64,000 nucleotides of DNA from a virus: the IMG/VR virus record IMGVR_UViG_3300042460_000724, positions 1 through 64,000 of that record, one strand, 5' to 3'. The notes beneath the pieces are model-generated. The model did not search any database. It was given only the letters and a program-made list of their open reading frames with translations, and was not told the DNA's origin. Both the position numbers and the translations under genes were made by a program. Positions 1-63,999 of the stretch are shown here, piece after piece (position 1 is the first letter of the stretch; each line of letters starts with the position of its first letter).

Positions 1-1593
1 GAAGTTGCGTCTGATGGTAATCTTCAGATTTGGGCTAACTCGGGCGGCAATACTGAATACAGTTGGACATTTGGCACAGATGGTACTCTAACATTGCCTC
101 AAGGTAGTCAAATAAGTGAAACTAGTAATACTAGTGTTAATATCACAGCCAATGCTAATACATGGGCTTTTGGTGTAGATGGTAAATTAACATTACCCGA
201 TATTGCTACTATTATTGCGCCGTGGACAGACGACCTAACATTAACAGCACAAGTTGAATATAATATTTGCACTATACAAAATGCAGGTAGTGGATATAGT
301 GGTGGTACTCCACTGCCGACCACAACAACAGGTGGTACAGGCTCAGGAATGACTGTAAACTTTGGATATGGTATAAGTGGTCAGTTGGTTAGTGTTAGTG
401 TAAGTAATCCTGGCACAGGTTATTCGAACGGTGATGTTATCGGAGTAGATGGTGGCACTGGCACATTTGTAATAACCAAATATAATATTTCAGCAAATCA
501 AGCCAATAATAATACTTTACCAACTGATTGGACATTTGGTACAGATGGCAACCTAACATTACCAACTGTTGGTAGTTTGGTTGGCAATCTTATTGTACCC
601 GGTTCTATTGTAAGTAGTGGGGCAAGTCCTGCTCCGTACATAAGTGGCTTCTCTAGTATTAGTGCATTAACATTAAGCGCACCAACATTGACTAACGGTA
701 ACTCAAATGTTACTGTCAATGTTAATTCAAACTTATGGAACTTTGATAGTACTGGTAATTTAACAATACCAGGATCATCAGGTGGATTCATTAAGACAGT
801 AGCAAATGCATCAATTGGTATTGCCGCAGTTGATAATGGTACAAACAATCCGGCACAATTGTTGTCAATGACTAATGCAGGCGCCGCAACTAGTATTATT
901 TCAGCATATGCTACTAATGCTACGATTCAAACTAATGCTACTGGTACATTAAAGACTTGGTCATTTGATAATGCAGGTAACTTAACATTACCAGGCAACA
1001 CATTTGCTGTTAACTATGCTAATGGTACTCAAGTACCAGTAGGAGTCACACAAGATATCACCTCCAACGGTGCTATGAGTATAATGCTCTATGATGGTAA
1101 CATAAAGTATAATAACTATGCTACTGTTGAACCAAGTACAGGCAATATTGCCGGTGGTAATATTAGTGCGTCTGGTAATATTTCAGCTAACAACTTTACT
1201 GGTAACGGTGGCAGTTTATCTAATGTTGCAACAAAAATATCAAGTAGTTGGACACTTGCGTCAGGTAATAACACCGTAAGCATTAGTGTCCCATTGAATG
1301 GAACTTATGCACTCTGGGTTAACGGTAATATTCCAAACGGTATTATAACATATACTGCTACCGCAGTTGTTACAAATACAAATGTACCAGTACTAGGTGA
1401 ACAATATGGTTGGTATTACGCAGTCGGAAATGCATTAGTGTTTACGTCAATACCTGATCAGTTTGTTGGCACTGTGGGCTCAATCAGCAATGTTAATACT
1501 TATGTAGGTAATACCGCAAATGTGTTTACATTCGGTATCACCAACAATAGTGGTAACACAGCAGTTGTTAATTATGGCTACACTAAACTGTAA
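1..1593 (+). CDS. Tail fibre / virion structural protein, 5'-truncated
   Basis: Frame is open from position 1, upstream of the 94 start. G/N/T/S-rich with repeated W(T/S/A/N)F(G/D)xxGxLT(L/I)P motifs. Confidence 0.75.
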   Translation, partial: EVASDGNLQIWANSGGNTEYSWTFGTDGTLTLPQGSQISETSNTSVNITANANTWAFGVDGKLTLPDIATIIAPWTDDLTLTAQVEYNICTIQNAGSGYSGGTPLPTTTTGGTGSGMTVNFGYGISGQLVSVSVSNPGTGYSNGDVIGVDGGTGTFVITKYNISANQANNNTLPTDWTFGTDGNLTLPTVGSLVGNLIVPGSIVSSGASPAPYISGFSSISALTLSAPTLTNGNSNVTVNVNSNLWNFDSTGNLTIPGSSGGFIKTVANASIGIAAVDNGTNNPAQLLSMTNAGAATSIISAYATNATIQTNATGTLKTWSFDNAGNLTLPGNTFAVNYANGTQVPVGVTQDITSNGAMSIMLYDGNIKYNNYATVEPSTGNIAGGNISASGNISANNFTGNGGSLSNVATKISSSWTLASGNNTVSISVPLNGTYALWVNGNIPNGIITYTATAVVTNTNVPVLGEQYGWYYAVGNALVFTSIPDQFVGTVGSISNVNTYVGNTANVFTFGITNNSGNTAVVNYGYTKL

Positions 1594-4378: not shown

Positions 4379-4381
4379 ATT

Positions 4382-42240: not shown

Positions 42241-42249
42241 TGTTTTTCC

Positions 42250-47188: not shown

Positions 47189-47540
47189 CTATTACCCTAT
47201 CAAAGAATACTAATTCCTCAGCATACTCCGAACCTATTACTTTTTTATTCTTCCAATCACTTCCGACTATCATAATGTTCGGCTTGTATTGTTCAATGAT
47301 ACTCTCTAACTCAAAATCAGTATTGAATACTAATACCTTATCTACTGCTTTTAAATTACTGAGTAATGCTACCCTATTATCTATTTTGTTGAATGGTCTA
47401 TCACTACCTTTTTTCTCGGTTACACGATTATCAGAATCAATTGCAACCAATAGATATGTGCCTAAACTCTTTGCATAGTTTAATAAGTCTAAATGACCCA
47501 TATGTAATATATCAAACGTTCCATTAACAAAAACTTTCAT
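47133..47540 (-). CDS. hldC: Heptose-1-phosphate adenylyltransferase (HldE C-domain)
   Basis: NGTFDILH.GH, DSD.RV..KG..RP and STT. Confidence 0.88.
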   Translation of the reverse strand: MKVFVNGTFDILHMGHLDLLNYAKSLGTYLLVAIDSDNRVTEKKGSDRPFNKIDNRVALLSNLKAVDKVLVFNTDFELESIIEQYKPNIMIVGSDWKNKKVIGSEYAEELVFFDRVIDESTTKTIENYINRRHLH

Positions 47541-47570
47541 ACACTATTCTAACATAACCTGTAGTAAATA

Positions 47571-48575
47571 TCAAGCTTTTTGTTCCAAAAATTGATGGGC
47601 AGTTTCTAATGATGAACTAATAGCCATATGCATATCAATATACACATACATTCCACAACGTCCAATAAACGTATTTTTTGTATTTTCGATAGCTTTATAC
47701 TTCTTATATAACTCTCTATATGTATCAATTGGATAATAACGTTCATTATTATTGTCTTTATAATCACAAGGTTCTTCAAATGTTAATGTTGTATTACCCG
47801 TATTAATATTATTGGGTAGTTTATTCCATTCAGTCATTCTGGTAAACGAACCATTATCAGTAAAATTAACTACGGTAGTAGGTAACATACTGGGTGAGGG
47901 AAACGTTATTGAATGAAATTTAATAGACCTATATGGTAATTCCCCGTATATGAAATCATAATATACATCTATGGGCATAGAATTAAAGATATGATCATAA
48001 TTATCTTCCATACTCTTATCAAACATCGTATTCAACTTAACGGTAATGTTTGGATGATTTAATATATTAGTGAATAATGTCGTATATCCGTGTGTCGGTA
48101 GATATTGATATTCATCTCTAAAATATCTACTGTCGTCATTATCTCTAGTACTAACTCGATTTAATACGTCTTTGCTTAGTGTTTTATAATGTTCTCCCCA
48201 CATCTTTTTACTGTAGGGTTCAAAAAATGTATTGTTTATATCTTCTTTTTTTACTGTTTCTAATGTGATTGTGTTAACCGGAAACGGTACATATTTGCCA
48301 CTTTCCAGTAACGCCAACACGTGATGTTCATAGAATGTCCACTCGGTAAATTTACTAACCCAATCAAATACTTTTTTGTTACTAGTATGAAAGATATGCG
48401 GTCCATATTTATGAATGCGTAATCCGTGTTCATTGATATAGTCATATGCATTACCACCAATATGGTCTCTATTATCAATAACTATTACGTTGTAATTGTT
48501 TTCTGCAAGTTCTCTCGCTACTACACTACCAGCAAAGCCTGCCCCTACTATTAAGATATTTTGTTTTGTTCCCAT
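47571..48575 (-). CDS. glf: UDP-galactopyranose mutase
   Basis: GAGF.G, HIGGNAYD, YGPHIFHT, LPYRS, YYP and GR.G.Y.Y. Confidence 0.93.
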   Translation of the reverse strand: MGTKQNILIVGAGFAGSVVARELAENNYNVIVIDNRDHIGGNAYDYINEHGLRIHKYGPHIFHTSNKKVFDWVSKFTEWTFYEHHVLALLESGKYVPFPVNTITLETVKKEDINNTFFEPYSKKMWGEHYKTLSKDVLNRVSTRDNDDSRYFRDEYQYLPTHGYTTLFTNILNHPNITVKLNTMFDKSMEDNYDHIFNSMPIDVYYDFIYGELPYRSIKFHSITFPSPSMLPTTVVNFTDNGSFTRMTEWNKLPNNINTGNTTLTFEEPCDYKDNNNERYYPIDTYRELYKKYKAIENTKNTFIGRCGMYVYIDMHMAISSSLETAHQFLEQKA

Positions 48576-49351
48576 AATTCTTCCAAATCTTTTACATAAA
48601 AAGATATATCTTTAGCTTCCCCTAAATGAATAGCTAAAGTTTTCATAGGCATCATCATCCTAACTTCAGGTTGTTGCCATACTTTACTTATTGTGTTACC
48701 TTCCCAATAGCCTTCTATTGTGCCGATATCCAATAAACTATAAAATTCTTCTTTATATTTTTTAAATAAATTTACTGGTATTAAAAATGATTCGTGTGTA
48801 AACCAAGTATTTCTATAATATCTATCTGGTCCTGGTATAACCATACAGGGATAAACATATGTTCCGTTGAAGGGATTCTGTGGATGATAGTATAGTTGAT
48901 TAAAATCTTGAGGAAAAATACATATAGTTAACTCAGGACTAATAGATTCTAAATAGTTTCTTGCATCTATCATTGTAGCAATACTATTTGGATAATGCAA
49001 ATAGTCATCTTCTACTAGATAAACAAGTTCATCGTCCGGTAACTGACTAATGTAGTCTAATGCAATCTTTAAACTATATCTAGATTTTTGTTTAATATCT
49101 TTAAATTCAATTGTTGGATCAACTACTACATCTTGTATTGTAGCATTAGCAAAATGGTTATGTAAGAACTGTTTAGTCTCAATGGAAGAATCATCATCAA
49201 TTACGTGTAAACTAAAAGGGTTATTATAATTAGTTAATGACGTTACTAGTGAGTTATAACATCTTTTTACACATTCGTCTTTTGGCACAATGCGATTACT
49301 TGCCAATGAGGCTTTATCACAGGTCCTTAATACCACATTTAGTTTTTGCAT
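48551..49351 (-). CDS. GT-A fold glycosyltransferase
   Basis: VIDD.S...YLVEDDYLH; start at TAATG 49351. Confidence 0.75.
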   Translation of the reverse strand: MQKLNVVLRTCDKASLASNRIVPKDECVKRCYNSLVTSLTNYNNPFSLHVIDDDSSIETKQFLHNHFANATIQDVVVDPTIEFKDIKQKSRYSLKIALDYISQLPDDELVYLVEDDYLHYPNSIATMIDARNYLESISPELTICIFPQDFNQLYYHPQNPFNGTYVYPCMVIPGPDRYYRNTWFTHESFLIPVNLFKKYKEEFYSLLDIGTIEGYWEGNTISKVWQQPEVRMMMPMKTLAIHLGEAKDISFYVKDLEELWEQNKIS

Positions 49352-49485
49352 TACTTCAAGCCTAAACTCTTGCAAATATGTGCTAGATGGATTTTGTCCG
49401 AGCTCGGTAAGCCCGTAATAAGAATACGTGGTGTCATACTATTTCCTGTAAAATATTTATAATAGAGACAGTATAACCATTTATT

Positions 49486-49905
49486 TTACATCAAAGCGTC
49501 TACTTCTTCATGTGTCGTAGCGGCTTCAATTTGAGCTATTTTTGCTAATAATGTTTCTTTGGCAGCACTAACCAAACTAGTATCAAATTCTTCTGCAGGA
49601 TTAGCACTCAGTTGTAGTTGTATTTGTTGGTAAACAACCTGCTGAAATAATCCATTAGCTTGTCCGATTAACGAACCTTTGCGTTCATCTATTTCTAAAT
49701 CACGTTTACCCCAAATAATTTCAACTGGACTTTTACTAAGATCAAATGTGTGTGTGGTCATTATTTCACGATTTTGTATTAGATCAGGGATTATTTCAAC
49801 TGCTTCATTCCAACCATCTTGACCTGCAGGTGGTGCGGAGTCCCAGCAGTCTGTTACTGAATTATCTATTACCCTTACCCAATATCCTGTTTTAATTGTA
49901 CTCAT
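49486..49905 (-). CDS. Tail-fibre assembly/chaperone-like protein
   Basis: C-terminal I.AATT.EEVDA. Confidence 0.5.
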   Translation of the reverse strand: MSTIKTGYWVRVIDNSVTDCWDSAPPAGQDGWNEAVEIIPDLIQNREIMTTHTFDLSKSPVEIIWGKRDLEIDERKGSLIGQANGLFQQVVYQQIQLQLSANPAEEFDTSLVSAAKETLLAKIAQIEAATTHEEVDALM

Positions 49906-49967
49906 TTTAAATGTTCCTTATATTATATTTATATTAACTTTTCTTGTTTTTTTGTATAACTAAAATA

Positions 49968-50792
49968 TCAGTTAGGTGGATTTTTTCCTAAAGTTTCTAA
50001 TAATTTTGATTTCAATAATATGTCTAATGGTACATTCTGATAGATGTAAGTTAATATGCCGCGTACCTGTGTATATCTTTCATCTTTGTGAGTGTGATTG
50101 ATAAACACTATCCCGCAAGTAACATAGTTTTCTAAATCTTCTATTTTATAATAATGCGCCAACAAGTACCATAAAGTCCAACAGTTAGTTGGATTGCTTT
50201 CAAACTCATCTTTTAACATTTTTATATACAATTCAGGGCGAGATTGTTTTTTAAAATCTTGGTCATGTATTAGATAGATATTTTCATTATATATTTCAAC
50301 TTCATATCTATCTTTGTGCTTAAACCAAAGATGTTCATAGATAGGTTGTGCCCAAGTATAATCGTGTCTACGATGTATTTTGTTTGTACCTAAAAAGTTA
50401 GGAGGACCTACTCTAACATTTTCTGTATATAAATCTAATCTATCACACGATATGTTAGTAACAGTAGGATTAGCTTCCATTGTGTTTTTCATTTCAGCTA
50501 ACACATTGATACTGAAATATTCATCTAGATCCGGACTTAAACACCAATCTACGTCAGTAGGAATCATATCTAAGTTGTAGTTACGTGCTACATTAAATAT
50601 CCATGGGGTGAATATCTTTTGCTCAATAATCAGATTAGGATCGACCTTTGCAGCCTCTTGAAACATTTCCCAAGTCCCGTCAGTTGAACCGGTATCAAGT
50701 ATCACTCTATATGTAAATTTTTTGGTATAGTATAACCACTTCTCTACGTATTGAAGTTCATTTTTACAGATTGTATATGCTGCCGTTTTCAT
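49968..50792 (-). CDS. GT2 glycosyltransferase with TPR-like tail
   Basis: I.KNE, DTGSTDGT, F..ARN, D.DE and W..PI.E. Confidence 0.88.
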   Translation of the reverse strand: MKTAAYTICKNELQYVEKWLYYTKKFTYRVILDTGSTDGTWEMFQEAAKVDPNLIIEQKIFTPWIFNVARNYNLDMIPTDVDWCLSPDLDEYFSINVLAEMKNTMEANPTVTNISCDRLDLYTENVRVGPPNFLGTNKIHRRHDYTWAQPIYEHLWFKHKDRYEVEIYNENIYLIHDQDFKKQSRPELYIKMLKDEFESNPTNCWTLWYLLAHYYKIEDLENYVTCGIVFINHTHKDERYTQVRGILTYIYQNVPLDILLKSKLLETLGKNPPN

Positions 50793-51394
50793 TCTTGTGT
50801 CTTAATAAATGATGTCTGTGATCCGTCTGGAATATTCAATATGTTTAACTTATGCCAATTGCATTGTATAAACATCTCCACTGCCATTCGCACACTCATC
50901 TGTGCTGATTGTGTGCCATTTTTGTCGGTATAACGCCAAGTAGTGGTATCGTCACATAAAATAACTCCACCTACACGTAGTATTTTCCAAGCTAATACCA
51001 AGTCTGTTAATACTTCGCTTGCTTTGTGATCTCCGTCAATATATATAAACTCTGCGTTGACGTTGTTATTAATCAAATCAATTAGTCCATCTGTACTATG
51101 TTTTTGTATATAAGTTACATTGTTATTTTTATTGAACCCAAGATTATCTAAGAAGTTTTGTTTTACAATATTAAAATCCTCGCTCATATCATTACTACCA
51201 ATATGCGGGTCTATTGCATATATTTTCAGGTTAGGATTATACGGTGTAAGTTGGTCACTCATCCAAAATGTTGTAGAGCCTTCAAACACACCAATTTCTA
51301 CAATTGTATTTGGTACTCCGTATGTGTTTACTAAGTGACCAACATTAGTCATTGCACCCTTACCACAATTAAAATCCATGCTAAATTTGTACAT
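50789..51394 (-). CDS. SAM methyltransferase (Methyltransf_24-like)
   Basis: VEIGVFEGS, IDP, IYIDGDH and GG....DD. Confidence 0.88.
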   Translation of the reverse strand: MYKFSMDFNCGKGAMTNVGHLVNTYGVPNTIVEIGVFEGSTTFWMSDQLTPYNPNLKIYAIDPHIGSNDMSEDFNIVKQNFLDNLGFNKNNNVTYIQKHSTDGLIDLINNNVNAEFIYIDGDHKASEVLTDLVLAWKILRVGGVILCDDTTTWRYTDKNGTQSAQMSVRMAVEMFIQCNWHKLNILNIPDGSQTSFIKTQE

Positions 51395-51999
51395 TATTGC
51401 TTTCTATATATAACTATATTCTTCTCAGGATTGATATAGGGTGTTTCTTTTACTTTAGTTAAGAGTTTCTCTATTGCAGTAAACACATTGAAGTAGTCAT
51501 TATCCCAGATAACAAAGCCCTTAGAGTCTACATCACTGGGTATGAATCTGTTATCTTCATTTATTAAAACTAAGTAACCGTTTGGTTTTAGCGTATTGAC
51601 TATCTTTTCTATCTCTTGTTGTGGGTTCTCTACGTGTTGTAATACAAATACCGCTAAACATACATCTACTGAATTTTCATCGGGTAGTTGTGATATTATT
51701 TTAAACTTCCTTGGGTTAGAAACATATAGGGTAGCAAAAGTTTTCATACTTTCACTGATATCAAAACCCAATACAGAGCAATCAAACTTAGTAATTAGTT
51801 CTTTACTAACACGACCCATACCACAACCAAAGTCTAATACAGTTGATTGATTAGTAATAATGTTTTCATTATATATTGTATCAACTAAGAAATGTGTTTC
51901 TTTGTGGAACTTTTCTGGTTTATCAGATTCAAAGCTGAGAACCACATTCATTGCCTGAGTGATTGTGGTTACATCAAATGCTTCTTTAACATATCTCAT
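51394..51999 (-). CDS. Class I SAM methyltransferase
   Basis: VLDFGCGMGR, DIS, VLQH and LKPNG. Confidence 0.9.
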   Translation of the reverse strand: MRYVKEAFDVTTITQAMNVVLSFESDKPEKFHKETHFLVDTIYNENIITNQSTVLDFGCGMGRVSKELITKFDCSVLGFDISESMKTFATLYVSNPRKFKIISQLPDENSVDVCLAVFVLQHVENPQQEIEKIVNTLKPNGYLVLINEDNRFIPSDVDSKGFVIWDNDYFNVFTAIEKLLTKVKETPYINPEKNIVIYRKQ

Positions 52000-52715
52000 G
52001 TTTTAAGTTTATCGTTACGTTCCGTAGTTCTACCGGTTAATGGTCTAGCTAGAATTGTAGTGTCAGTAGTTACGTTTATGTTTTTATCATAAGCGAACAT
52101 ACCTTGATGTGTAATATTAAACAAGTCTGCTCTCATCATAATATCTAACGGAGCACATATACCCATTTTTAATACGTGCGAGATTAAGTTCTTTGCCATT
52201 AATGGGTCTAATGCATATGCGTGGGCACGACAGATAAACAGATAATTAGGTCCTTCACTAGCGTGAGGTGGTATAGTTGGATGTATTTTCCATCCTTGCT
52301 CTGCCCACTCAGCACCGCCTAGGTAACATATTGAGTTAACTGAATCATATGAAGTAAACTTCTTAGTCATAATGCTATCGTGTTCTAAGATAACAATAGG
52401 CTTATCAATCTTGGCGCAATGAACCCACAGGCTGATGTGACTTAATGCACAAGCAACTTCACCTCTAGTTAAGTAATGGTCTGTAATCTTTAGCATTTTG
52501 ATTACTGAATCACCTACGCTGTGGTCAGGTACTGTAATTTCAGAGCCAATGCCGTTGAAGGCATCCCATACTTTATATTGCATACCTACATTCATACAAC
52601 TGAGTTGGCATCGTTTAGAATACCGTTCAGATGATTCATTACCTTTTACAGTAATGATGTAAGCGTGTTCTACTTCAAAATCACGTTTATAGAATAAATT
52701 AAGATTTGTGTCCAT
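51996..52715 (-). CDS. GT25-like glycosyltransferase
   Basis: GEVAC.LSH..LW...ILEHD...AHAY...P.D. Confidence 0.82.
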   Translation of the reverse strand: MDTNLNLFYKRDFEVEHAYIITVKGNESSERYSKRCQLSCMNVGMQYKVWDAFNGIGSEITVPDHSVGDSVIKMLKITDHYLTRGEVACALSHISLWVHCAKIDKPIVILEHDSIMTKKFTSYDSVNSICYLGGAEWAEQGWKIHPTIPPHASEGPNYLFICRAHAYALDPLMAKNLISHVLKMGICAPLDIMMRADLFNITHQGMFAYDKNINVTTDTTILARPLTGRTTERNDKLKT

Positions 52716-54420
52716 CTAATGCCCGTTTAAATTCACTGTAGTCAATACGACCAGGTTTGTGTACTTGAATTAACATTCTAGTTGATAATGCTACATTATT
52801 CAAGTGATTTAGGGCATGAGTAAGTTCTTCTTGCGTTATTTTGCCATTAGATAGACGTTGTTGATATGGATCAGTATACTCAAACTGAGTATCACATACT
52901 TCGATATCAATATCTTCTTCAAATGCTAGTAATGAATCACTTTCACCTTTATTTGCTTTTTCAAACATATGACGTTTGTTAAACAAGTTAAACATAGCAA
53001 CAGTAATCAATCGTTTATGTGTTGGGTCATCTAATGCAGTATCACAGCGCCAATGTGGAGTTTGTATTTCCCAAACAGCACCATTCTCACTTACACGATA
53101 TAGTTCTTTAATAACATCAATGAAGTCTCTACCAGTTTCTCCTAGATGTTCTAATATATCTTTAGCTACAACGTGTGAGTATTCGTTGTCTTTCCATGGC
53201 CAAGGTAGAACACTTAAATCAACCTGTTCATCGGCATCAATGAATGGTGATTTATCAACGTTAACAAATCCATCAAATTTCTTAAAGCCACAACCCAAGT
53301 TAAGTTTCTTAGTGACACGATCCTCATTTGGTTGATCGATATGTTTTAAGTTGAAACGTGCTTCTAGTGCAGTGTAAAGACTTTGGAATGTTGGGTCCCA
53401 TTTCTTTGGATCTGTTTGTCTAAAGATTTGTACACATTTGTAGTATGGGCTTGTGTTAGCATCAGGTGAGCCTGGTGTCCACGTATGATACGGGAGTATA
53501 GGAACGATGACCCATGTTTCTTTACCCATTGCGGCTGCTAAGTGTGCTACACTTGTACAAGATGAGATAACGATATCCATATTAGCAATAGCTGCCATTG
53601 TATCTTCCCAGCTTAACAAGAAGTGTTGCAAGTCAGTTACATTTTCAGGTAGTTGAATAATGTTATGATCCTTTTGCAAACTATATACCTGTAGTTCATC
53701 ATATTTTGCTAAGTTAGTGATAAAGTTCTCTGGAAACTTTCTAAATTGTTGATGTTCAAATTTAGGATTGCCTGCCCAACGAATACCAACTTTAATTTTT
53801 TCGCTGTTGACGAATGTTTTCCAAATTTCAATACTATCAGCTTTAGCAGTTAGATAAGGATCGTTTGGAAAGTTTGAGAATTCGTGACCAGCTACCCATC
53901 CGGCACTAAATCCAGGAACCCAATAATCATGAGGTACAGTATGTGATTGATTTCGTAGTATAACTTTATCTACACCTTCAATACGTTCAAATACTGATAC
54001 TAGTTCAGGTGCACAAGCGATGTATACTGATTTTGCACCTTGTTTTTTAAAGCTAGTAGCAAAACGTGCGTGAATGATTTCATCTCCGTACCCACCTTCT
54101 AGTGATACAATAATAGATTTATCGTTGATAGAATGTTTTTCTGGGTTAAAAATAGGTGCATCTGTTTTAAGAGGAGGGCTACCGTATACATTTAAGAAGC
54201 GACCATTCTCTAATAGTTGACAGCCTTTTCTATAGTCACCGTCTTGAATCATAAACCAACCACGGTTAAAGCAATGACGCATCCAAATATCTTCTGTATT
54301 TTGTCCTTTAGCGTCTACTATTTTTTCAGGGCCTATGTTTTCTAATTTATCTGATAATATTCTGGCTTCTAGATGTTTACCTTCTAATTGAAGCTTGAGC
54401 ATCATATCTATTTCGTGCAT
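52699..54420 (-). CDS. GT9 (heptosyltransferase-like) fused to a methyltransferase domain
   Basis: EGG.GD.I..ARF, VGIRWAGNP and DT.A.I..MD.VIS..TSVAHLAAAMG; C-terminal KLNLGCG...DPTH. Confidence 0.85.
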   Translation of the reverse strand: MHEIDMMLKLQLEGKHLEARILSDKLENIGPEKIVDAKGQNTEDIWMRHCFNRGWFMIQDGDYRKGCQLLENGRFLNVYGSPPLKTDAPIFNPEKHSINDKSIIVSLEGGYGDEIIHARFATSFKKQGAKSVYIACAPELVSVFERIEGVDKVILRNQSHTVPHDYWVPGFSAGWVAGHEFSNFPNDPYLTAKADSIEIWKTFVNSEKIKVGIRWAGNPKFEHQQFRKFPENFITNLAKYDELQVYSLQKDHNIIQLPENVTDLQHFLLSWEDTMAAIANMDIVISSCTSVAHLAAAMGKETWVIVPILPYHTWTPGSPDANTSPYYKCVQIFRQTDPKKWDPTFQSLYTALEARFNLKHIDQPNEDRVTKKLNLGCGFKKFDGFVNVDKSPFIDADEQVDLSVLPWPWKDNEYSHVVAKDILEHLGETGRDFIDVIKELYRVSENGAVWEIQTPHWRCDTALDDPTHKRLITVAMFNLFNKRHMFEKANKGESDSLLAFEEDIDIEVCDTQFEYTDPYQQRLSNGKITQEELTHALNHLNNVALSTRMLIQVHKPGRIDYSEFKRALDGHKS

Positions 54421-54504: not shown

Positions 54505-57500
54505 TTACTTAGTAAACCCGAAGTGATTAAAGCCATTTGATACGGTCACTGCAGAGTAACCAACCGACGTAATTGCCGGTATTAATGGGCGATTGTCGTT
54601 GAATCCCCATTCGTATAATACATTGTTAGGATCTATGACAAAAGTACTATTAAAATTCGCAGATACCTGTGTCCAAGATGATGTACCAATTTGTGTAGGC
54701 ACACTATACATATTAGGAGGAGTATATGCTTGATTAGTGCCTAATTGAACTGGGCTGGATTTAGAGATCCTATCATTTAGACCAAGTTGACCACTAGTAT
54801 TAAGACCCCAAACATAAAGTTTGTTATCATTGCGAGTAGCCATCGATGAATTTATATTGGATCCACCTTTATTTAAATTAGTATATATAGAAGTACCAAG
54901 TTGTACCGGAGCTGATCTAGATAGAATGTCTAATAATCCTAATTGACCATTAGCATTATTACCCCAAGTAAACAAATAGCCATCACTACGTATAGCAAAT
55001 TGACTTGCACCAGTTGTTGAAGTGATAGTCCAAGAATCGGTTGCTGTGGGCAAGAATATTGGACTTAATGCAGATGTTACTGAATTAATTCCCAATTCAC
55101 CATTGGTATTAGTTCCCCAAGTATATAAACCATATAACTGATCTAATCCAATAGTAAATAGACCACCAGCTGAGACCATAGCCCATGAACTTGTACCAAT
55201 TTGTATTGGGCTTGATTTTGAAATTATTGTACTATCCCCTAATTGACCACTAGTACCTAATCCCCATGTAAATAATAAGTTATCGCTACGTACACCAGCC
55301 ATATAGTTTACACCAGAACTAACAGATGTCCAACTAATAGTGCCTAGTTGTACCGGACTACTTCTTAGTATCACATCGTTTGTTCCTAGTTGTCCGCTAG
55401 CATTATTTCCCCAAACATATAATAGTCCATCACTAGTAATGGCTGCTGTTGCAACACTACCGGCTGAAATAATACTCCAGCTATTTGTACCTATTTGCAC
55501 AGGACTACTTCTGCTTAATATAGCATTGTCACCTATTTGACCATTAGTACCAAGTCCCCACATAAATAGTGCACCATCACTACGTATTGCACCACGTGAT
55601 GTATTTTTAGAAATACTTGTCCAAACAGTACCAACGCCAATTTGTACTGGACTACTACGAGAGACTGTATCATTTTGTGCTAATTCACCGTTTGTATTAA
55701 TACCCCAAGCCCATAGTTTATTAGTAGCATCAAGAGCCATAAAGTTTGCAAGACCTGTTGATGAAGATACGGTGGTCCAACTACTTGTACCAACTTGTAC
55801 TGGACTACTACGATGTACTAAATTATTTGATGCTAGTTGTCCTGATGCGTTATCACCCCAAGTAAACAATCCACCGTCAATACGAATAGCGACGGTTGAT
55901 GTAGTAAATAAACCAACAGCAGTCCAAGAGCTTGTGCCAATTTGTACTGGACTGCTACGAGATATTGTATCATTTAGACCTAGTTGTCCACTAGTACCTA
56001 AACCCCACATAAACAATGCACCGTCACTACGAATGGCAGCACTAGTAGACAGTCCAGTTGATATTGTATTCCAGCTTAAGGCTGCAGGTTTGCTTGTAGT
56101 AGTCAAGTATGTCTGTTGTATCTCTGCACTTGTGAATGAATTTACTTGTACTGGACTAGACCTATTAGCAATGGATCTATCTCCTAATTGTCCACTAGCA
56201 TTACCGCCCCAAACATATAATAAATTATTTGTATTAATTGCAGAAGTTGAGCTTTGTCCAGCACTTACTATATTCCAGCTTGTACCAACTTGAACTGGAC
56301 TACTGCGGGATAATACTGTAGTATCTCCAAGTTGTCCTGTAGTATTAATACCCCAAGTAAACAATCTATTATCAGATGTAATTCCACCCACAAAAGTTAC
56401 GCCTGCACTTATTTGTGCCCAACTACTTGCGCCAATTTGTACCGGAGCAGATCGAGATATGATAGTAGTATCACCTATTTGACCACTAGCGTTAAGACCC
56501 CAAGCAAATAACAAGTTATCAATACGTATACCATATGATGTAGTTCCACCTGAGCTTACTGCATTCCATGACTCATTTATTGATCGGATAAATACTGGAC
56601 TACTTCTGGCTCCAAGAGATTCACTTAATCCAAGCTGTCCATTATTATTTTGTCCCCAAATGAAAAGTTGATTATCAGTATAAGTCAACGCCATAGTTAC
56701 TCCAGGAGACGTGCCTATACTAACCTGTGACCAACTGCTTGTACCAATTTGTACTGGACTACTACGAGGTAATATTGTATTGTCTCCTAGTTGACCATTA
56801 GTATTAATACCCCAAGACCAAAGAGTGTTGTCAAGACGTAAGGCAGTGGTTGTAGCAAATCCAGTTGATATAACAGACCAACTGCTTGTACCAATTTGTA
56901 CTGGACTACTACGAGGTAATATTGTATTGTCTCCTAGTTGACCATTAGCATTAATACCCCAAGACCACAGTGTAGAGTTAGTTCGGATAGCCATAGCATA
57001 CGACAGTCCGGCTGACACACTAGACCAACTGCTTGTACCTATTTGTACTGGACTACTGCGTGGCACGATAGTAGTTGATCCTAATTGTCCACTAGTATTA
57101 TCTCCCCAGGAGAAAAGAGCACCATCCAAACGTATAGCATATACACTTACATCTCCGGCACTAACCTTTGTCCAACTACTTGTACCAACTTGTACAGGAC
57201 TACTACGATGTAGTATAGTGCCATCACCTAATTGTCCGGCGTTATTATTACCCCAAGTAAACAATGCACCATCACTACGTATTGCACCAACACAAGCCAG
57301 AGTACTTACAAGAGTTCCTGTTGCAACACTTCCTGAAACTATAGTCCAGCTACTTGTACCAACTTGTACAGGACTACTGCGATGTACTAAGTCATTTTGA
57401 CCTAATTGTCCTATTGTATTTAATCCCCATGACCACAACGTATTATCATTACGGATTGCATACATTGCATTATTGCCTATTGATATCTGAGACCAGCTAG

Positions 57501-60500
57501 TTGTACCCAATTGTATTGGACTATTTGTATTAACAGTCGAATTTTGTCCTAGCTGTCCAAATGAATTAATTCCCCAAGTAAACAATGCTCCGTCACTACG
57601 TATTGCCGCTGAACTCCCAATAGACCCACCTGCATTGATTTTGGTCCAACTGAATCCTGTTTTACCGGTAGCAGTTAAGTAAGTACTTTGTAGAGTGTTA
57701 TTTGTAAATGAACTAATTTGTACTGGGCTACTCTTGTTAGCCACAAACAGTTGACCAAGTTGTCCACTAGCACCTGCACCCCAACCATATAATACGTTGT
57801 CTGCGGTTAATGCTAAAGTTGTAAAGTCGGTTCCTGCTGTTATTCCACCTGCACTAACAGTAGTCCAACTACTTGTACCTATTTGAACTGGGCTACTACG
57901 ATGTAATATAGTGTCATCACCCAAATTACCAACTGCGTTATTACCCCAAGTAAATAGTGCACCATCACTACGTATACCTGCAAAATGTCCGGCTGAGCTA
58001 GATAATGCAGTCCAACTATATGCGGTAAACGTATTAGCGGCAGGGTTACCCCAACCATACAATTTGTTATTTGTCTTTATACCTACATTATGGCTATAAC
58101 CTGCACTAATTTTACTCCATGTATCTCCTGTGATTTGTGTAGGCATTGGTTGGTAGCTAGCAATTTGTACTGGACTAGATTTACTTACTACAGTATTATC
58201 ACCAATAGCGCCGTAGCTAGCACCCGAACCCCAACCATAAAACAATAGATTACCATCGAGCACACCGTAACTATTAGTAGATCCAGTACCAATTATAGAC
58301 CAACTACTTAAACTTACTAATGTTGGGCTAGATGTAGCAACAACAGAGTTAATACCTAATTCTCCGCTGCCGTTACCACCCCAAGTATATAGTAACTTAG
58401 TAGAAGTTAACCCTACCATATGGCTTTGACCAACAGTAATTTGTGACCAGCTACTTGTACCAAGTTGGGTTGCACTACTACGGTGGACTAGATCACCTAA
58501 ACCTAATTGTCCATTAGCATTTTGCCCCCATACAAATAATAAACTATCACTGCGTATTGCAGCCGCAGTGTTTACATTCATTGATACTTGTGACCAAGAC
58601 TCATTAGCAGTACGAATGAACACCGGGCTAGTAGATTGTGTAACAGTATTATTGCCTATTGCACCAACAGCATTTTGCCCCCATACAAATAATTGCCTGC
58701 TTGTGTTATCTATAGCTGCCGTATTAATATATAATCCACTAACCTTATACCAAGTACTAGTACCAATTTGTACCGGACTAGATCGGGAGATAGCAGTACT
58801 ATCTCCTAATTGACCGTTTGTGTTTAGTCCCCAGCCCCATAATGTATTATCACTACGAATAGCAACTGAGTATTGATTACCTGCGTTAACACTTGTCCAA
58901 CTACTAGTACCAATCTGTACTGGACTACTTCTAGGGAGAACATTAGTTAAACCTAAACCACCATTAGTATTAATGCCCCATGACCACAATGTATTATTGT
59001 TTAGTAGTCCTACCATGTGTGAGTAACCAACTGCTATTTGACTCCAACTACCTGCACCAAGTTTTACAGGACTAGATTTACTTACTACGGTATTATCACC
59101 TAACTGTCCGTTTGTATTAATTCCCCAAGTGAATAGTCCGCCGTCACTACGCAATGCGGCAGTTATAGCACCATTAGTACTAACCTGTGTCCAACTACTT
59201 GTACCAACTTGTACAGGACTACTACGAGCTACAAGATCACCTAGTCCTAGTTGACCACTAGCATTAATTCCCCAGGCAAATAAAGCACCACCAAGTCGTA
59301 TTGCAGTTACAGTCGATATCCCTGCCGCAACACTTGTCCAACTACTAGTACCAATCTGTACTGGACTACTGCGTGGCAATACATCAGTTGTACCTAATTG
59401 TCCACTAGTATTTAGACCCCACACAAATAATGCTCCATCGTTACGTATAGCATATGTAGAAAAATCTCCCACTGCTACCTGAGTCCAACTGCTTGTGCCA
59501 ATTTGTACTGGACTACTACGATGGATGATAGTATTATCTCCTACACCGCCGTTGTTATTAGTTCCCCACGTGAATAATGCTCCATCATTACGTATGGCTG
59601 CAGTCATACCATTTACACCACCGGAGCTTATTACAGACCAACTAAATGTTGTTGTTCCAGTTGCAGTTAAATAACTATTTTGCTGTGCAAGAGAATATAT
59701 CGATCCTACTTGGGTTGGACTACTTTTATTGACAGTATCATTTAAACCAAGACCACCGATGCCGTTAATACCCCATGTAAATAACAAACCATCACTACGT
59801 ATACCAGCCATAGTTGTAGCTGCCTTACTATTAATTAAAGTCCAACTACTTGTACCAATTTGTACTGGGCTACTTCTACTAAGTATTGTACTATCCCCTA
59901 GTTGACCACTAGTACCTAATCCCCAAGTCCATAAACTACCATCATTACGTATAGCCCCAAGTCCACCTACTTTACTCCAAGTAGTATCGGTACCAATTTG
60001 AACTGGACTACTGCGGTGGACTAAATCATTTAACCCTAAATATCCGTCAGTGTTGTTACCCCAAGCCCACAATGTACCATCACTGCGTATAGCTGTAGTC
60101 CAAGATGTTTCCGAATTAACCTGTATCCAACTACTAGAACCAACTTGTACTGGACTGCTTCTATGAAATATATCACTCAGTCCTAATTGTCCAGATTCGT
60201 TAGCTCCCCAAGTCCATAAACTACCGTCACTACGAATACCAGTGAATCGTAAATTTTGTCCAGTCAATATTGACCAAGATGTTGGAGAATTAACCGGCAA
60301 TATAAAGTTTGTGGGACTTAATGTTGGATTATATGGCCATTGTTGATATTGTAATCCCCACCCATACAATGTATTATCTGATGCAATAGCAAGTGAATGT
60401 ACGTTGCCAGCACTTATTTGTGACCAACTACTAGTACCAAGTTGTACTGGACTACTACGATGTAATCCCTCATTATTTACCTGATATGAACTATTATTAC

Positions 60501-63500
60501 CCCAGGCAAATAATTTATTAGTACTAGAAATAGCAAGCACGTGACTTATACCTGCACTAACTTGTGACCAACTGCTAGCACCTATTTGTGTTGGGCTATT
60601 TGAGTATGGTGTTGCACCAACTTGTACTGGGCTACTACGATGTTCTAACCAACTACCTGATATAGTTGTTGGATTAAATGCTAATCCTAGTGCTCCATTA
60701 GTGTTATTACCCCATATATATGCTATACCAGTAGTTGTGATTGCATTGGTTATTCCTGAACCGGCAGCACTAACACTTGCCCAGTCGCTATTATTACCTA
60801 TTTGAGTAGGATATGATTTACTAGTTGTAGAATTATCACCCAACTGTCCAAAAGTTGTATTAATTCCCCAAGTAAATAGTTTTCCATCGGATCTAATAGC
60901 TGATGACAAGCTTTGTCCAGCGCCAACGCTAATCCAGGAATCATTCATTGAGCGAATGAATACCGGGCTACTGCGGCTGGTAATTCCTAATATACCCAAT
61001 TCTCCACTAGTACCAAGTCCCCAAGTAAATAATGCGTTACCTGTATCGGCTGCAGTAATACCTAAAATGTTAGTATAGCCAGTTACCATTGTCCAACTAT
61101 TTGCACCAATTTGTACAGGGAATGATTTAGCAACTGTGGTACCATCACCCAATGATCCAGCAGTATTATTTCCCCAAGCAAACAGTAAACCATCACTTCG
61201 TATTCCTGATAATCCTGCAACAACTGTACCAATTGCAGTCCAAGAATCTGCTACTGAACGAATGAATACTGGGCTGGATCTACCGGCAACAACACCATTA
61301 CCAATAACGCCATCCCCACCTGCAGTAGTTCCCCATGTAAACATTTGCCCATTTGCATCAAGTGCGACTATTGCACTACCTGCATTAACGGTAGTCCAAC
61401 TACTTGTACCTGTAGTAAGTGTTGGACTAAAATATGTGTTCACTAGTGAGTTATTACCAAACTGTGCATTAGCTCCACTACCCCACATATATAGTAAATT
61501 ACCACTTATACCGGCTGTGACTGTGCCGCCTGCAGTTACTACACTCCAACTACTTGTACCAATTTGTACAGGACTACTACGATGTTGGGTAGAATCCGGA
61601 GTTCCTAACACACCACTAGTACCTGCACCCCAAGTGAATAATGAACCATCACTGAGAATTGCTACTGTCCATGATAAACCAGATGCTACTGCAGTCCAAC
61701 TGCTACTACCAATTTGTACTGGGCTACTACGATTTAGAGCAGTGCCATCACCTAGTTGTCCAAATGTGTTTACTCCCCATGCATATAATGCGCCAGTAGT
61801 ACGTATAGCATTACTTCTATTATTTGCAGAATAAACTTTTGACCATGTGTTTTCAGTACCGATTTGTACTGGACTACTACGAGCTACTACTGTGTTTAAT
61901 CCCAGTTGACCTACATCATTAGCACCCCAACTCCATAATGTACCATCACTACGAACCGCTAATACTGTACCGCCGGTAGTGTTAAACGGTCCTGTTGCAA
62001 CAGCAGTCCAACTACTTGTACCAACTTGTACCGGGCTACTACGATGAGCCTGTGTACCATCACCTACAGTACCTGCAGTGTTAACTCCCCAAGTCCATAA
62101 TGTATTATCACTACGTATGGCAGCCGTGAATGATGCTCCTGCTGATACTGTCAACCAGCTATTAGTACCAACTTGTACAGGACTACTACGATGCACTATG
62201 TCATTTAGACCTAATGCGCCATTGATGTTATTACCCCATGCAAACAATAAGCCGTCATTACGAATAGCAAACATTGTATTATTGGTATTTACCACAGTAG
62301 ACCAACTGTAACCAGTCTTACTTGTCTTTGTCAAATATGCCTGTTGTTCTGCAGGTGAAGAGAACGAAACAATTTGTACAGGGCTATTACGAGCAACTAC
62401 AGTTCTATCCCCTAATGCACCACCTGAACCAGAACCCCACGTGTACAATGTATTGTTAGCCATTATACCTGCTGTTGTACCAGATGCTTGTGTAGCAACA
62501 ATATTCCAATTACTTGTACCAAGTTGTACAGGGCTACTGCGTGAAATTGAGTCACCGATGCCAAGCTCACCGGCTGTATTTAATCCCCATGCAAATAATT
62601 TACTATCAGTTCGTATTGCAAATGTGCTGTTACCATTTGCTGTTACTAATGTCCAGCTGTTACCCGTACCTACTTGTACTGGGCTACTTCTAGCGATAAT
62701 ATCGTTTACTCCAAGATTACCAGAACCATTGACTCCCCAACCATATAATTTTCCATCCAACGTAATAGCAAAGGTAGATGTAGCGTTAGTTGTACTATTA
62801 GATGGTACAACTGACCAACTACTTGTGCCTAGTTGAACTGGGCTACTACGATGTACTAAATCATTTAGACCAAGTTGACCATTAAAATTGCCACCCCAAA
62901 CAAATAATAGTCCGTCACTTCTAATAGCGTAAGTATGGCTTATGCCAGCAGCAATACCACTCCAATTACTTGTTCCTATTTGTACCGGACTACTTCTGTG
63001 TAGAATATCATTTAAACCAAGTTGTCCGATACTGTTAGTTCCCCATGCAAATAACTTACTATCGCTACGAATAGCAAATGAAGTAGATGCACCTGCGGTT
63101 ACTGTAGTCCAACTCAATGTTCTAGGTTTACCTGTACTAGTTGACCAAGCAATTTCATCAGCTAATGTAATTAGTGATGAAATTATTACAGGTAATAAGA
63201 TTGTTCCTGGAGCATTACCTGTACCCAATTGACCATTATCATTATTGCCCCAACCGTATAAAACATTGTCCATGGTTAAAGCTAATGTATGAGTAGAGCC
63301 GGTGCTTATCATAGTCCAGCTACTTGTACCAACTTGTACTGGACTTGATTTTAGTATGACGGTGTTGTCCCCCAATTGACCAACATCATTATTACCCCAT
63401 GACCATAATGTTTTATCATTACGAATGGCCGCGGTAAATGTATCACCCTGTGCAACTTGGTACCAAGTATTAATAGTTGCATTTACTTGCACTGGGCTAC

Positions 63501-63999
63501 TAGTATCTACTACACTGTTAATACCTAATTCACCGACTGTATTACCGCCCCATGCGTATAAATACCCATTACCATTAGTGTAGTCCTGTATTATTCCCAT
63601 GCGTCCAGCAACCATAGTCCAACTACTTGAACCAATTTGTACTGGACTAGATTTATTTACAATTGAGTTGTCACCTAATCCACCATACGTATTATTACCC
63701 CAAGTAAATAAGGCTCCATCACTTCTTATTGCAGAAACAACGTATGCATTTCCAATATCACCAGATTGTCCTGCACTAACCATAATCCAGCTACTTGTAC
63801 CAACCTGTACTGGACTACTGCGATGTACTGTGTCATTAAGGCCCAATTGTCCTTGGCTATTAAGTCCCCATGACCACAAATAATTATTAGTGTCAATACT
63901 AAAAGCATTACCGAAGCCTGCCGCTAGTTGTTTCCAACTACCGGTACCTATTTGTACTGGACTACTTCTATTAATACCATCATTCTCTCCTAACTCCCC
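54505..63999 (-). CDS. Giant RCC1/BLIP-II repeat beta-propeller protein, 5'-truncated (probable virion adhesin/fibre)
   Basis: About 60 repeats of W(S/T)xVxAG...AIRxDGxLxxWGxNxxGQLG...RSSPVQIG; frame is open to the window end. Confidence 0.92.
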   Translation of the reverse strand, partial: GELGENDGINRSSPVQIGTGSWKQLAAGFGNAFSIDTNNYLWSWGLNSQGQLGLNDTVHRSSPVQVGTSSWIMVSAGQSGDIGNAYVVSAIRSDGALFTWGNNTYGGLGDNSIVNKSSPVQIGSSSWTMVAGRMGIIQDYTNGNGYLYAWGGNTVGELGINSVVDTSSPVQVNATINTWYQVAQGDTFTAAIRNDKTLWSWGNNDVGQLGDNTVILKSSPVQVGTSSWTMISTGSTHTLALTMDNVLYGWGNNDNGQLGTGNAPGTILLPVIISSLITLADEIAWSTSTGKPRTLSWTTVTAGASTSFAIRSDSKLFAWGTNSIGQLGLNDILHRSSPVQIGTSNWSGIAAGISHTYAIRSDGLLFVWGGNFNGQLGLNDLVHRSSPVQLGTSSWSVVPSNSTTNATSTFAITLDGKLYGWGVNGSGNLGVNDIIARSSPVQVGTGNSWTLVTANGNSTFAIRTDSKLFAWGLNTAGELGIGDSISRSSPVQLGTSNWNIVATQASGTTAGIMANNTLYTWGSGSGGALGDRTVVARNSPVQIVSFSSPAEQQAYLTKTSKTGYSWSTVVNTNNTMFAIRNDGLLFAWGNNINGALGLNDIVHRSSPVQVGTNSWLTVSAGASFTAAIRSDNTLWTWGVNTAGTVGDGTQAHRSSPVQVGTSSWTAVATGPFNTTGGTVLAVRSDGTLWSWGANDVGQLGLNTVVARSSPVQIGTENTWSKVYSANNRSNAIRTTGALYAWGVNTFGQLGDGTALNRSSPVQIGSSSWTAVASGLSWTVAILSDGSLFTWGAGTSGVLGTPDSTQHRSSPVQIGTSSWSVVTAGGTVTAGISGNLLYMWGSGANAQFGNNSLVNTYFSPTLTTGTSSWTTVNAGSAIVALDANGQMFTWGTTAGGDGVIGNGVVAGRSSPVFIRSVADSWTAIGTVVAGLSGIRSDGLLFAWGNNTAGSLGDGTTVAKSFPVQIGANSWTMVTGYTNILGITAADTGNALFTWGLGTSGELGILGITSRSSPVFIRSMNDSWISVGAGQSLSSAIRSDGKLFTWGINTTFGQLGDNSTTSKSYPTQIGNNSDWASVSAAGSGITNAITTTGIAYIWGNNTNGALGLAFNPTTISGSWLEHRSSPVQVGATPYSNSPTQIGASSWSQVSAGISHVLAISSTNKLFAWGNNSSYQVNNEGLHRSSPVQLGTSSWSQISAGNVHSLAIASDNTLYGWGLQYQQWPYNPTLSPTNFILPVNSPTSWSILTGQNLRFTGIRSDGSLWTWGANESGQLGLSDIFHRSSPVQVGSSSWIQVNSETSWTTAIRSDGTLWAWGNNTDGYLGLNDLVHRSSPVQIGTDTTWSKVGGLGAIRNDGSLWTWGLGTSGQLGDSTILSRSSPVQIGTSSWTLINSKAATTMAGIRSDGLLFTWGINGIGGLGLNDTVNKSSPTQVGSIYSLAQQNSYLTATGTTTFSWSVISSGGVNGMTAAIRNDGALFTWGTNNNGGVGDNTIIHRSSPVQIGTSSWTQVAVGDFSTYAIRNDGALFVWGLNTSGQLGTTDVLPRSSPVQIGTSSWTSVAAGISTVTAIRLGGALFAWGINASGQLGLGDLVARSSPVQVGTSSWTQVSTNGAITAALRSDGGLFTWGINTNGQLGDNTVVSKSSPVKLGAGSWSQIAVGYSHMVGLLNNNTLWSWGINTNGGLGLTNVLPRSSPVQIGTSSWTSVNAGNQYSVAIRSDNTLWGWGLNTNGQLGDSTAISRSSPVQIGTSTWYKVSGLYINTAAIDNTSRQLFVWGQNAVGAIGNNTVTQSTSPVFIRTANESWSQVSMNVNTAAAIRSDSLLFVWGQNANGQLGLGDLVHRSSATQLGTSSWSQITVGQSHMVGLTSTKLLYTWGGNGSGELGINSVVATSSPTLVSLSSWSIIGTGSTNSYGVLDGNLLFYGWGSGASYGAIGDNTVVSKSSPVQIASYQPMPTQITGDTWSKISAGYSHNVGIKTNNKLYGWGNPAANTFTAYSWTALSSSAGHFAGIRSDGALFTWGNNAVGNLGDDTILHRSSPVQIGTSSWTTVSAGGITAGTDFTTLALTADNVLYGWGAGASGQLGQLFVANKSSPVQISSFTNNTLQSTYLTATGKTGFSWTKINAGGSIGSSAAIRSDGALFTWGINSFGQLGQNSTVNTNSPIQLGTTSWSQISIGNNAMYAIRNDNTLWSWGLNTIGQLGQNDLVHRSSPVQVGTSSWTIVSGSVATGTLVSTLACVGAIRSDGALFTWGNNNAGQLGDGTILHRSSPVQVGTSSWTKVSAGDVSVYAIRLDGALFSWGDNTSGQLGSTTIVPRSSPVQIGTSSWSSVSAGLSYAMAIRTNSTLWSWGINANGQLGDNTILPRSSPVQIGTSSWSVISTGFATTTALRLDNTLWSWGINTNGQLGDNTILPRSSPVQIGTSSWSQVSIGTSPGVTMALTYTDNQLFIWGQNNNGQLGLSESLGARSSPVFIRSINESWNAVSSGGTTSYGIRIDNLLFAWGLNASGQIGDTTIISRSAPVQIGASSWAQISAGVTFVGGITSDNRLFTWGINTTGQLGDTTVLSRSSPVQVGTSWNIVSAGQSSTSAINTNNLLYVWGGNASGQLGDRSIANRSSPVQVNSFTSAEIQQTYLTTTSKPAALSWNTISTGLSTSAAIRSDGALFMWGLGTSGQLGLNDTISRSSPVQIGTSSWTAVGLFTTSTVAIRIDGGLFTWGDNASGQLASNNLVHRSSPVQVGTSSWTTVSSSTGLANFMALDATNKLWAWGINTNGELAQNDTVSRSSPVQIGVGTVWTSISKNTSRGAIRSDGALFMWGLGTNGQIGDNAILSRSSPVQIGTNSWSIISAGSVATAAITSDGLLYVWGNNASGQLGTNDVILRSSPVQLGTISWTSVSSGVNYMAGVRSDNLLFTWGLGTSGQLGDSTIISKSSPIQIGTSSWAMVSAGGLFTIGLDQLYGLYTWGTNTNGELGINSVTSALSPIFLPTATDSWTITSTTGASQFAIRSDGYLFTWGNNANGQLGLLDILSRSAPVQLGTSIYTNLNKGGSNINSSMATRNDNKLYVWGLNTSGQLGLNDRISKSSPVQLGTNQAYTPPNMYSVPTQIGTSSWTQVSANFNSTFVIDPNNVLYEWGFNDNRPLIPAITSVGYSAVTVSNGFNHFGFTK
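56729..56967. repeat. 92-bp direct repeat, 147-bp period, 1 mismatch
   Basis: 56729-56820 versus 56876-56967. Confidence 0.9.

Follow-up and report, generated by a model that had tools for sequence, protein, structure and literature searches.

A giant viral RCC1-repeat protein of 84 blades that probably folds as a nested tree of seven-bladed propellers

Here we describe a giant RCC1-repeat protein encoded by a metagenomic virus, and we consider how its blades might be arranged into propellers. The window that we analysed is a stretch of 64,000 nucleotides, positions 1 to 64,000 of the IMG/VR virus record IMGVR_UViG_3300042460_000724, which is a contig of 110,305 bases whose completeness is judged to be ~31%. 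Read as an open frame in the source record, the gene is a 13-kb minus-strand frame (54505..67659) that begins with an ATG start, encodes 4,384 amino acids (aa) and runs past the end of the window, which holds the portion 54505..63999, or residues 1221-4384. All features of the protein described below lie on the minus strand. A first-pass annotation, made from the letters and their open reading frames, had presented this portion as a single open frame full of RCC1 repeats, and so it is: on the giant protein Pfam finds RCC1-type families only, with PF00415 in 50 stretches (1205.9 bits) and PF25390 in 16 stretches (1627.3 bits), and repeats of ~50 aa score above the curated cut-off of the RCC1 profiles PF00415, PF13540 and PF25390. 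The matches in PHROG are likewise confined to families labelled 'regulator of chromosome condensation'. Using a repeat hidden Markov model (HMM) of our own, trained on 18 canonical 49-residue repeats, we count 84 RCC1 blades (12 x 7) in the whole protein, 61 of which fall in the window. These blades are mutually divergent, with normalised pairwise scores of 0.2-0.8.

The run of blades is punctuated by two kinds of unusual junction. In an entry linker, the D strand of a blade is separated from the SW of the following one by 16-29 residues more than usual; the seven conserved linkers measure ~18-24 aa, are rich in Q and E and carry an aromatic-[LV]-[TS] motif. The exit motifs read SP[VI]F[IL], then four to six residues, then [DE]SW, which makes them 2-3 residues longer than the normal SPVQIGTSSW junction. 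The whole protein has seven of each, with five of the linkers in the window and two further upstream. The first-pass annotation had treated five linkers as opening brackets and the SP[VI]F[IL] motif as the closing bracket. The four linkers that it quoted were all found, together with the fifth (..ADEIAWSTSTGKPRTLSW), as were the exit motifs, and a rule-based stack parser run over the whole protein balances entries against exits, giving the bracket word (())(())()()() with own-blade counts of 7,7,7,7,7,7,7. The blade parse also bears out the four bracket pairs said to enclose 7 repeats each and the interrupted outer units 5+[7]+2, 4+[7]+3 and 2+[7]+3+[7]+2. When the markers were placed at random under the same bracket word, not one of 2,000,000 trials gave seven at all nodes (chance <5e-7; analytic ~1e-6). 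The 84 blades and their bracketed sevens are confirmed as a real property of the sequence, far beyond chance. Outside the bracketed and interrupted units 21 blades are left over, and these form the backbone.

Following the chain from the high-coordinate end of the window, the first feature is a stretch of backbone, blades 24 (part) to 29 (63181..63999), recognised because relatives have orthologous backbone blades, and the last backbone propeller is taken to start with blade 29. Entry linker O3 (..SSLITLADEIAWSTSTGKPR; 63121..63180), which has invariant residues and is helical in an AlphaFold model, leads into blades 30-34 (62371..63120), the '5' of the interrupted unit U2 with the form 5+[7]+2. 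After these comes entry linker O4 (..SPAEQQAYLTKTSK; 62317..62370), again with invariant residues and seen in an AlphaFold model, and behind it the uninterrupted unit I2, blades 35-41 (61261..62316), delimited by the blade parse and by the matches of AlphaFold model 1. The exit motif SSPVFIRSVADSW stands behind blade 41 (61240..61278), blades 42-43 supply the '2' of the outer unit by the blade parse (60955..61251), as blades 30-34 do its '5', and a second exit motif, SSPVFIRSMNDSW, closes it behind blade 43 (60934..60972), both exits being placed by conservation and by the stack parser. The backbone then resumes with blades 44-47 (60343..60945), in which blade 45 has an extra D-like strand and blade 47 ends after its C strand with GWG, as they do in relatives.

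The two remaining interrupted units had been placed by the first-pass annotation at the xWG loop of divergent blades, and both 4+[7]+3 and 2+[7]+3+[7]+2 do begin straight behind the GWG of divergent blades, numbers 47 and 62 (residues 2408-2439 and 3178-3211 of the full protein), which are without the GQLG loop and the D strand. A connector, QWPYNPTLSPTNFILPVNS (60286..60342), leads out of blade 47 into blades 48-51 (59707..60285), the '4' of unit U3. These are followed by entry linker O5 (..SLAQQNSYLTAT; 59659..59706), which is a helix at 203-211 in AlphaFold model 2, by the uninterrupted unit I3, blades 52-58 (58615..59658; blade parse and AlphaFold model 2), by the exit motif TSPVFIRTANESW behind blade 58 (58594..58632; stack parser) and by blades 59-61, the '3' of the unit (58162..58605). 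Each of U3 and U4 is then trailed by an extra D-like strand (..PMPTQI and ..SVPTQI, respectively), and the strand behind U3, ASYQPMPTQIT (58129..58161), which is kept in relatives, would complete blade 47.

Backbone blade 62 (58027..58128) has its A-C strands alone and then a connector, NPAANTF, within a motif, GWGN.AAN.F..YSW, that is kept in relatives. Blades 63-64 (57715..58026), the first part of U4, lead by way of entry linker O6 (..NNTLQSTYLTATGK; 57661..57714) to the uninterrupted unit I4, blades 65-71 (56587..57660), all as given by the blade parse, and thence through the exit motif SSPVFIRSINESW behind blade 71 (56566..56604; stack parser) to blades 72-74 (56143..56577). Entry linker O7 (NSFTSAEIQQTYLTTTSKPA; 56083..56142) marks the start of a module that is missing from the ortholog P0007, in which the uninterrupted unit I5 behind it, blades 75-81 (55051..56082), is absent. 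The exit motif LSPIFLPTATDSW behind blade 81 (55030..55068; stack parser) returns to blades 82-83 (54742..55044), which like blades 48-51, 59-61 and 72-74 are taken from the blade parse, and the D-like strand that comes next (GTNQAYTPPNMYSVPTQI; 54688..54741), also kept in relatives, would complete blade 62. The chain ends with the final backbone blade 84 and a C-terminal tail resembling an extra A+B hairpin (..YSAVTVSNGFNHFGFTK; 54508..54687), a tail common to the relatives P0007, P0010, P0052, P0107, P0105 and P0358.

The same pattern is found in other assemblies. Three orthologs of 4,367-4,388 aa, 70-75% identical to the query and drawn from other metagenomes (independent JGI and ENA assemblies), have 84 blades in the same arrangement; one of them was recovered as DNA as well, and pattern scans of viral-contig DNA returned one ortholog locus and fragments only. 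Across five orthologs, 60-75% identical overall, the linker and exit residues are invariant. The ortholog P0007 is 58% identical and has 77 = 11x7 blades, and its sole large gap against the query, residues 3840-4221, corresponds to linker O7, seven blades and an exit. At the site of the gap P0007 has an ordinary SSPVQV/GTSSW junction, and 3+[7]+2 is turned into a run of 5. Whether homologs differ by indels of 7 blades had been set beforehand as a check in the first-pass annotation, and this one large gap, made up of one linker, 7 blades and an exit, agrees with it.

Five more distant relatives have the MLL.KWLL N-terminal motif and/or the C-terminal blade and tail in common with the query, and their trees differ, reaching up to six levels. 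They were parsed by hand because the regex parser missed marks there. P0010 has 91 blades, with six blades followed by 4[4[4[4[7]3]3]3]3 and later 4[4[2[7]5]3]3 within a split blade; P0358, P0107 and P0052 have 49 blades apiece; and P0105 is N-terminally truncated. In these hand parses the node sums equal 7 throughout all five proteins. Some 40 linkers in six architectures at ~40% identity keep their length and motif, and the 4/3 split recurs in P0010 and P0107. The wider family offers a comparison, since plain tandem relatives have unbroken blades (21 in 59 of 115), and no entry linkers or exit motifs were found at their propeller borders.

The relatives also speak to the sites of insertion. 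Orthologs of the seven blades that make up the last backbone propeller can be recognised in the distant relatives, and the socket after the first of these blades differs in content: P0358 has nothing there, P0107 and P0052 have a Laminin_G_3 domain, P0010 has one propeller and the query has a 14-blade nested pair. Because the site also takes an unrelated fold, it must be a genuine insertion socket. The split blade recurs in all six architectures: the sequence of a backbone blade breaks off behind its C strand at GWGN.AAN.F..YSW, and 7, 21 or 28 inserted blades separate it from a D-like strand, ..Y..PTQIG.SSW. At the sequence level the D-like strand of the query comes back after 14 blades for blade 47 and after 21 for blade 62. 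Splicing the split halves together in silico neither raised the HMM score nor extended the match into the D strand.

Two side observations belong with these relatives. In P0107, P0052 and P0105, Concanavalin-like Laminin_G_3 domains of ~215 aa lie between blades at sockets that hold propellers in other members. A further record, P0013 (NCBI source, 2,605 aa), is 75% identical to the query and has its module order scrambled, for example with linker O7 ahead of the O3 region; this entry from the same gene family is probably chimeric or mis-assembled.

From these patterns we consider it likely that one chain folds as twelve seven-bladed RCC1-type propellers arranged at three levels in a tree, and not in a string. 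Solved RCC1-like domains such as RCC1 and UVR8 are seven-bladed, and the count rule of seven would follow from such a ring. The uninterrupted units I1-I5 would be five complete propellers, each sitting between neighbouring blades of an interrupted unit (5/2, 5/2, 4/3, and 2/3/2 with two inserts), and each interrupted unit would close its own ring around the insertion point. The four interrupted units would in turn be inserted into the 21-blade backbone, which would make three propellers; two of these insertions would lie between blades and two inside a blade, between the C strand and the returning D strand, as in Trm734. By way of a helical entry linker the chain would leave the parent at its rim and reach the daughter at the central A strand, and the exit motif would return it from the daughter's last outer strand. 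Reasoning from the four-strand meander, we expect the daughter's inner A strand to start on the face where its last outer D strand ends, at a distance of about one blade radius, so that a helical linker of ~10 residues with short coils could span rim to centre and a short exit would be enough. The backbone would most likely be grouped as blades 1-5+20-21, 22-28 and 29+44-47+62+84. More speculatively, the two termini may join as a velcro closure, since the chain ends in what looks like an A+B hairpin and begins with a blade that is without a normal B strand.

Several results weigh against this arrangement, among them those of structure prediction. AlphaFold model 1, built for the 5+[7]+2 fragment from an alignment of 4 orthologs and 1 paralog, is of too low a confidence for its topology to be read, with a predicted local distance difference test (pLDDT) score of 52.6, a predicted template modelling (pTM) score of 0.42 and a Foldseek root-mean-square deviation (rmsd) of ~21. 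Within that limit, its matches to RCC1, UVR8 and HERC2 start at 295-300 and end at 618-655, to be compared with a linker at 280-297 and a bracketed unit at 298-649, and the five outer blades (residues 2-281) are matched on their own at rmsd 3.2-3.4. AlphaFold model 2 was built for the 4+[7]+3 fragment from 4 orthologs and 73 tandem relatives, an alignment in which 73 of 77 proteins are tandem and which is sparse at blade 58. Locally it is the more confident of the two, at pLDDT 77.5, with six inner blades above 90 and the seventh inner blade and the exit below 50; it has no clean seven-blade ring (Foldseek template modelling score ~0.56, rmsd ~9), and under that tandem-dominated alignment its best superpositions run across the linker (4..433 and 55..463; for BLIP-II 6..384, rmsd 3.4). 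Entry linkers are helical in both models, and closure of the interrupted, outer unit is seen in neither; as a test of ring closure, the groups do sum to 7, but no confident model has closed rings. Propellers built from consecutive repeats across the linkers had been named in the first-pass annotation as an outcome that would speak against nesting. The low-confidence, ortholog-only model thus places its borders at the linker as nesting would have it, and the model with the deeper alignment superposes across it; the latter fits the unfavourable outcome in form, but we do not weigh it heavily because tandem co-variation is built explicitly into its alignment, which is also sparse at blade 58.

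In the distant relatives the exits were placed by hand from junction anomalies, so confirmation bias is possible, and the automatic regex parser is noisy on these proteins. The partition of the backbone, which is based on orthology with P0010, P0358 and P0107, is less certain, as is the joining of the termini. A blade-register signal appeared with the nested parse and with none of the seven tandem phases, but it was gone once the bracket-adjacent blades (positions 1 and 7) and the junction residues were masked; it therefore restates the brackets, is circular and was dropped. The repeat-level phylogeny that the first-pass annotation had proposed as a check gave no independent signal. Position-specific HMMs made from 21-blade tandem proteins had a cross-validated accuracy of 0.25 where chance gives 0.14, which is not enough to fix the phase of the query. 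A four-chain complex prediction for the backbone pieces 1444-1496, 2239-2458, 3165-3213 and 4307-4384 gave 'no answer', its score of 0.33 lying under the mark of 0.34, and counts neither for nor against nesting. As to the original proposal that at least seven complete propellers are arranged by recursive insertion and not in tandem, the node sums of the relatives and the P0007 indel speak for it, but the AlphaFold models do not show clean rings.

The strongest competing account is that the twelve propellers are rings of seven consecutive blades, re-phased along the chain, in which linkers and exits are scars of 7-blade cassettes, gained by insertion or duplication at arbitrary phases, that now lie as loops inside rings. 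Gain or loss of seven blades at any phase keeps such rings closable, so the count grammar and the P0007 indel would be expected here too and, taken by themselves, do not establish nesting; plain tandem arrays, mostly of 21 blades, make up the wider family, and the best superpositions of model 2 run over the linker. We nevertheless regard this account as unlikely. The foremost objection is that every member of the family would have two blades always lacking a D strand and two orphan D strands lying 7k blades away. Scars without a role should decay, yet the length and motif of the ~40 linkers persist over six architectures and their residues do not vary among orthologs; tandem relatives show no linker at their propeller borders; and the 4/3 split repeated in P0010 and P0107 would be meaningless. 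Model 2 has no clean ring either, and the domain borders of model 1 fall at the linker.

In a mixed assembly, only the uninterrupted units would be closed, and the partial groups would be open arcs, or would be closed between copies or with other virion proteins. Other propellers, Sec13-Sec31 for example, have a ring that a second chain completes; low-confidence model 1 separates only the inner unit and a five-blade arc, and the closure of an outer unit appears in no model. Against this, the partial groups total exactly seven within the chain at every level and in every relative, in hand and rule-based parses alike, and closure between chains would not need such sums, so we hold a mixed assembly to be improbable. 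That the giant gene is an artefact, mis-assembled from shorter metagenomic RCC1 genes, is hardly credible even though highly repetitive DNA mis-assembles easily and P0013 has its modules scrambled over 2,605 aa, because orthologs of 4,367-4,388 aa at 70-75% identity show the same 84-blade pattern in independent JGI and ENA assemblies, the blades (scores 0.2-0.8) are distinct enough to assemble and the frame stays open over 13 kb. The nested tree is thus the best explanation that we can offer, backed at the level of sequence by independent architectures and, by analogy, by the solved precedent of Trm734.

In that WD40 protein, strands c7 and d7 of a blade of the propeller BPA enclose a complete seven-bladed propeller, BPB, and an N-terminal strand forms part of the last propeller (PMC6847430). 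Because this topology is solved, one level of propeller-in-propeller insertion is established in WD40 proteins, and it resembles the split-blade arrangement that we propose for blades 47 and 62; the two termini may follow it as well. The resemblance is topological, since Pfam finds RCC1-type families and no WD40 repeat family in the giant protein. Trm734 differs in being a eukaryotic WD40 protein with three propellers and one level of nesting, whereas in the giant family the repeats are of RCC1 type and a chain would have 7 to 13 propellers, nested at three levels in the query and at six in P0010; these proteins would also use a second mode of insertion, between blades, with a dedicated helical linker and exit, and the content of their sockets varies. 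DDB1, CPSF160 and SF3B3 are triple WD40 propellers similar to Trm734. Domain insertions into propellers are also known elsewhere, such as the integrin alpha I domain between blades 2 and 3 and the RCC1-like domain (RLD) of UBR5 with its inserted domains. These share with our case the use of a propeller loop or inter-blade junction as a socket, as with Laminin_G_3 in the relatives, but their guest has another fold and the insertion is not recursive.

Among proteins with the same repeat, RCC1, UVR8, the HERC2 RLDs, RPGR and BLIP-II are alike in sequence and provide the best structural matches of both models, but they are single propellers or propellers parted by other domains, and we know of no RCC1-like domain in which propeller-in-propeller insertion has been reported. 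The nearest cultured phages with such arrays are the freshwater Synechococcus phages S-SRM01 and BUCT-ZZ01, and the jumbo phage phAPEC6 has eleven RCC1-like proteins whose role is not known (PMC7247149). Tandem RCC1 proteins of phages and metagenomes (PHROG 7220/4219, phAPEC6, S-SRM01, BUCT-ZZ01) share with the query the blade family, an N-terminal MLL...LL and totals that are mostly multiples of seven; they differ in having unbroken blades, without entry linkers or exit motifs. We found nothing specific in the literature on nested RCC1 proteins or propeller-in-propeller arrangements in phages, and one paper that matched, PMC13558084, dealt with strain numbers only. What would be new here is recursive nesting of the RCC1 type with a dedicated junction grammar; as propeller-in-propeller insertion itself is not wholly new, the arrangement is not categorically so.

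Some further features of the chain are recorded as side observations. The extra D-like strand of 12 residues (GATPYSNSPTQI) after blade 45, at window 60586-60621, has no insert behind it and is found on the same backbone blade in P0010, P0358, P0107, P0052 and P0105; it would give that blade a fifth strand or else represent an empty socket. Within an unbroken backbone run, the junctions behind blade 20 (..PIQLGKDLLSW, residues 1030-1036) and behind blade 27 (..PVQVNATINTW, residues 1393-1397, window 63469-63483) are slightly long and exactly seven blades apart; a ring border might run here, or blades 21-27 might be a degenerate insertion. The N-terminal motif MLL.KWLLTVQ (record 67590-67659, outside the window) and the C-terminal A+B-like hairpin (..SAVTVSNGFNHFGFTK; window 54508-54570) are kept in the nested family, and plain 21-blade tandem relatives have similar N-termini (MLLIEQLL, MILETWLL). 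These conserved elements at the two ends may serve closure between the chain ends or act as a virion-attachment signal.

The surroundings of the gene suggest a structural region. Upstream on the same strand are very large genes with PHROG matches to tail-fibre, baseplate-wedge and virion-structural families, the first of which begins ~0.9 kb upstream. At 67600-106999 of the record there is a run of minus-strand genes for proteins of 966 to 1,620 aa, in which stretches with PHROG matches to baseplate-wedge, tail-fibre, virion-structural and head-decoration families recur, and the phage seems to invest heavily in surface appendages. Directly downstream, window 45024-54420 encodes a GT25-like glycosyltransferase, two methyltransferases, a GT2-like protein, a UDP-galactopyranose mutase and a 573-aa protein that is methyltransferase-like in part; the giant protein, which is rich in Ser, Thr and Asn, could be a substrate of these enzymes, their sole link being adjacency. 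Further downstream on the same strand, window 41140-44571 holds the large and small subunits of a class I ribonucleotide reductase with an ATP-cone. Class I ribonucleotide reductase is typical of large lytic phages.

The tail-fibre gene neighbours and the lectin inserts of the relatives are the grounds on which we propose an adhesin role, and the Laminin_G_3 inserts hint at carbohydrate binding. From sequence and context it is a reasonable inference that the protein is a virion-borne, branched and multivalent binding scaffold, with sockets for propellers or lectin domains whose content changes by gain and loss of cassettes. The guanine-nucleotide-exchange or chromatin-binding activity of eukaryotic RCC1 is not expected of this protein from a phage structural region. 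Tentatively, and with less confidence than we place in the nested fold, we suggest that the family could be a plug-and-socket system, in which a root propeller with both termini would anchor on the virion and carry a tree of propellers and lectin domains, up to six levels deep and with a helical entry and a short exit at each socket, and in which gain and loss of cassettes would retune multivalent host binding.

If the nested reading is true, recursive domain insertion within one polypeptide would extend far past the single level of Trm734, to 12 propellers at three levels here and to six levels in a relative, and a closed repeat fold could act repeatedly as both host and guest. The conserved grammar of the junctions would be legible from sequence, and its count rule is a simple and falsifiable tool for annotating giant RCC1 genes. 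The arrangement would also offer a natural template for engineered branched multivalent binders. For the phages themselves, it would give a structural logic to their unexplained RCC1 proteins, as sockets that swap propellers and lectin domains beside the tail-fibre genes.

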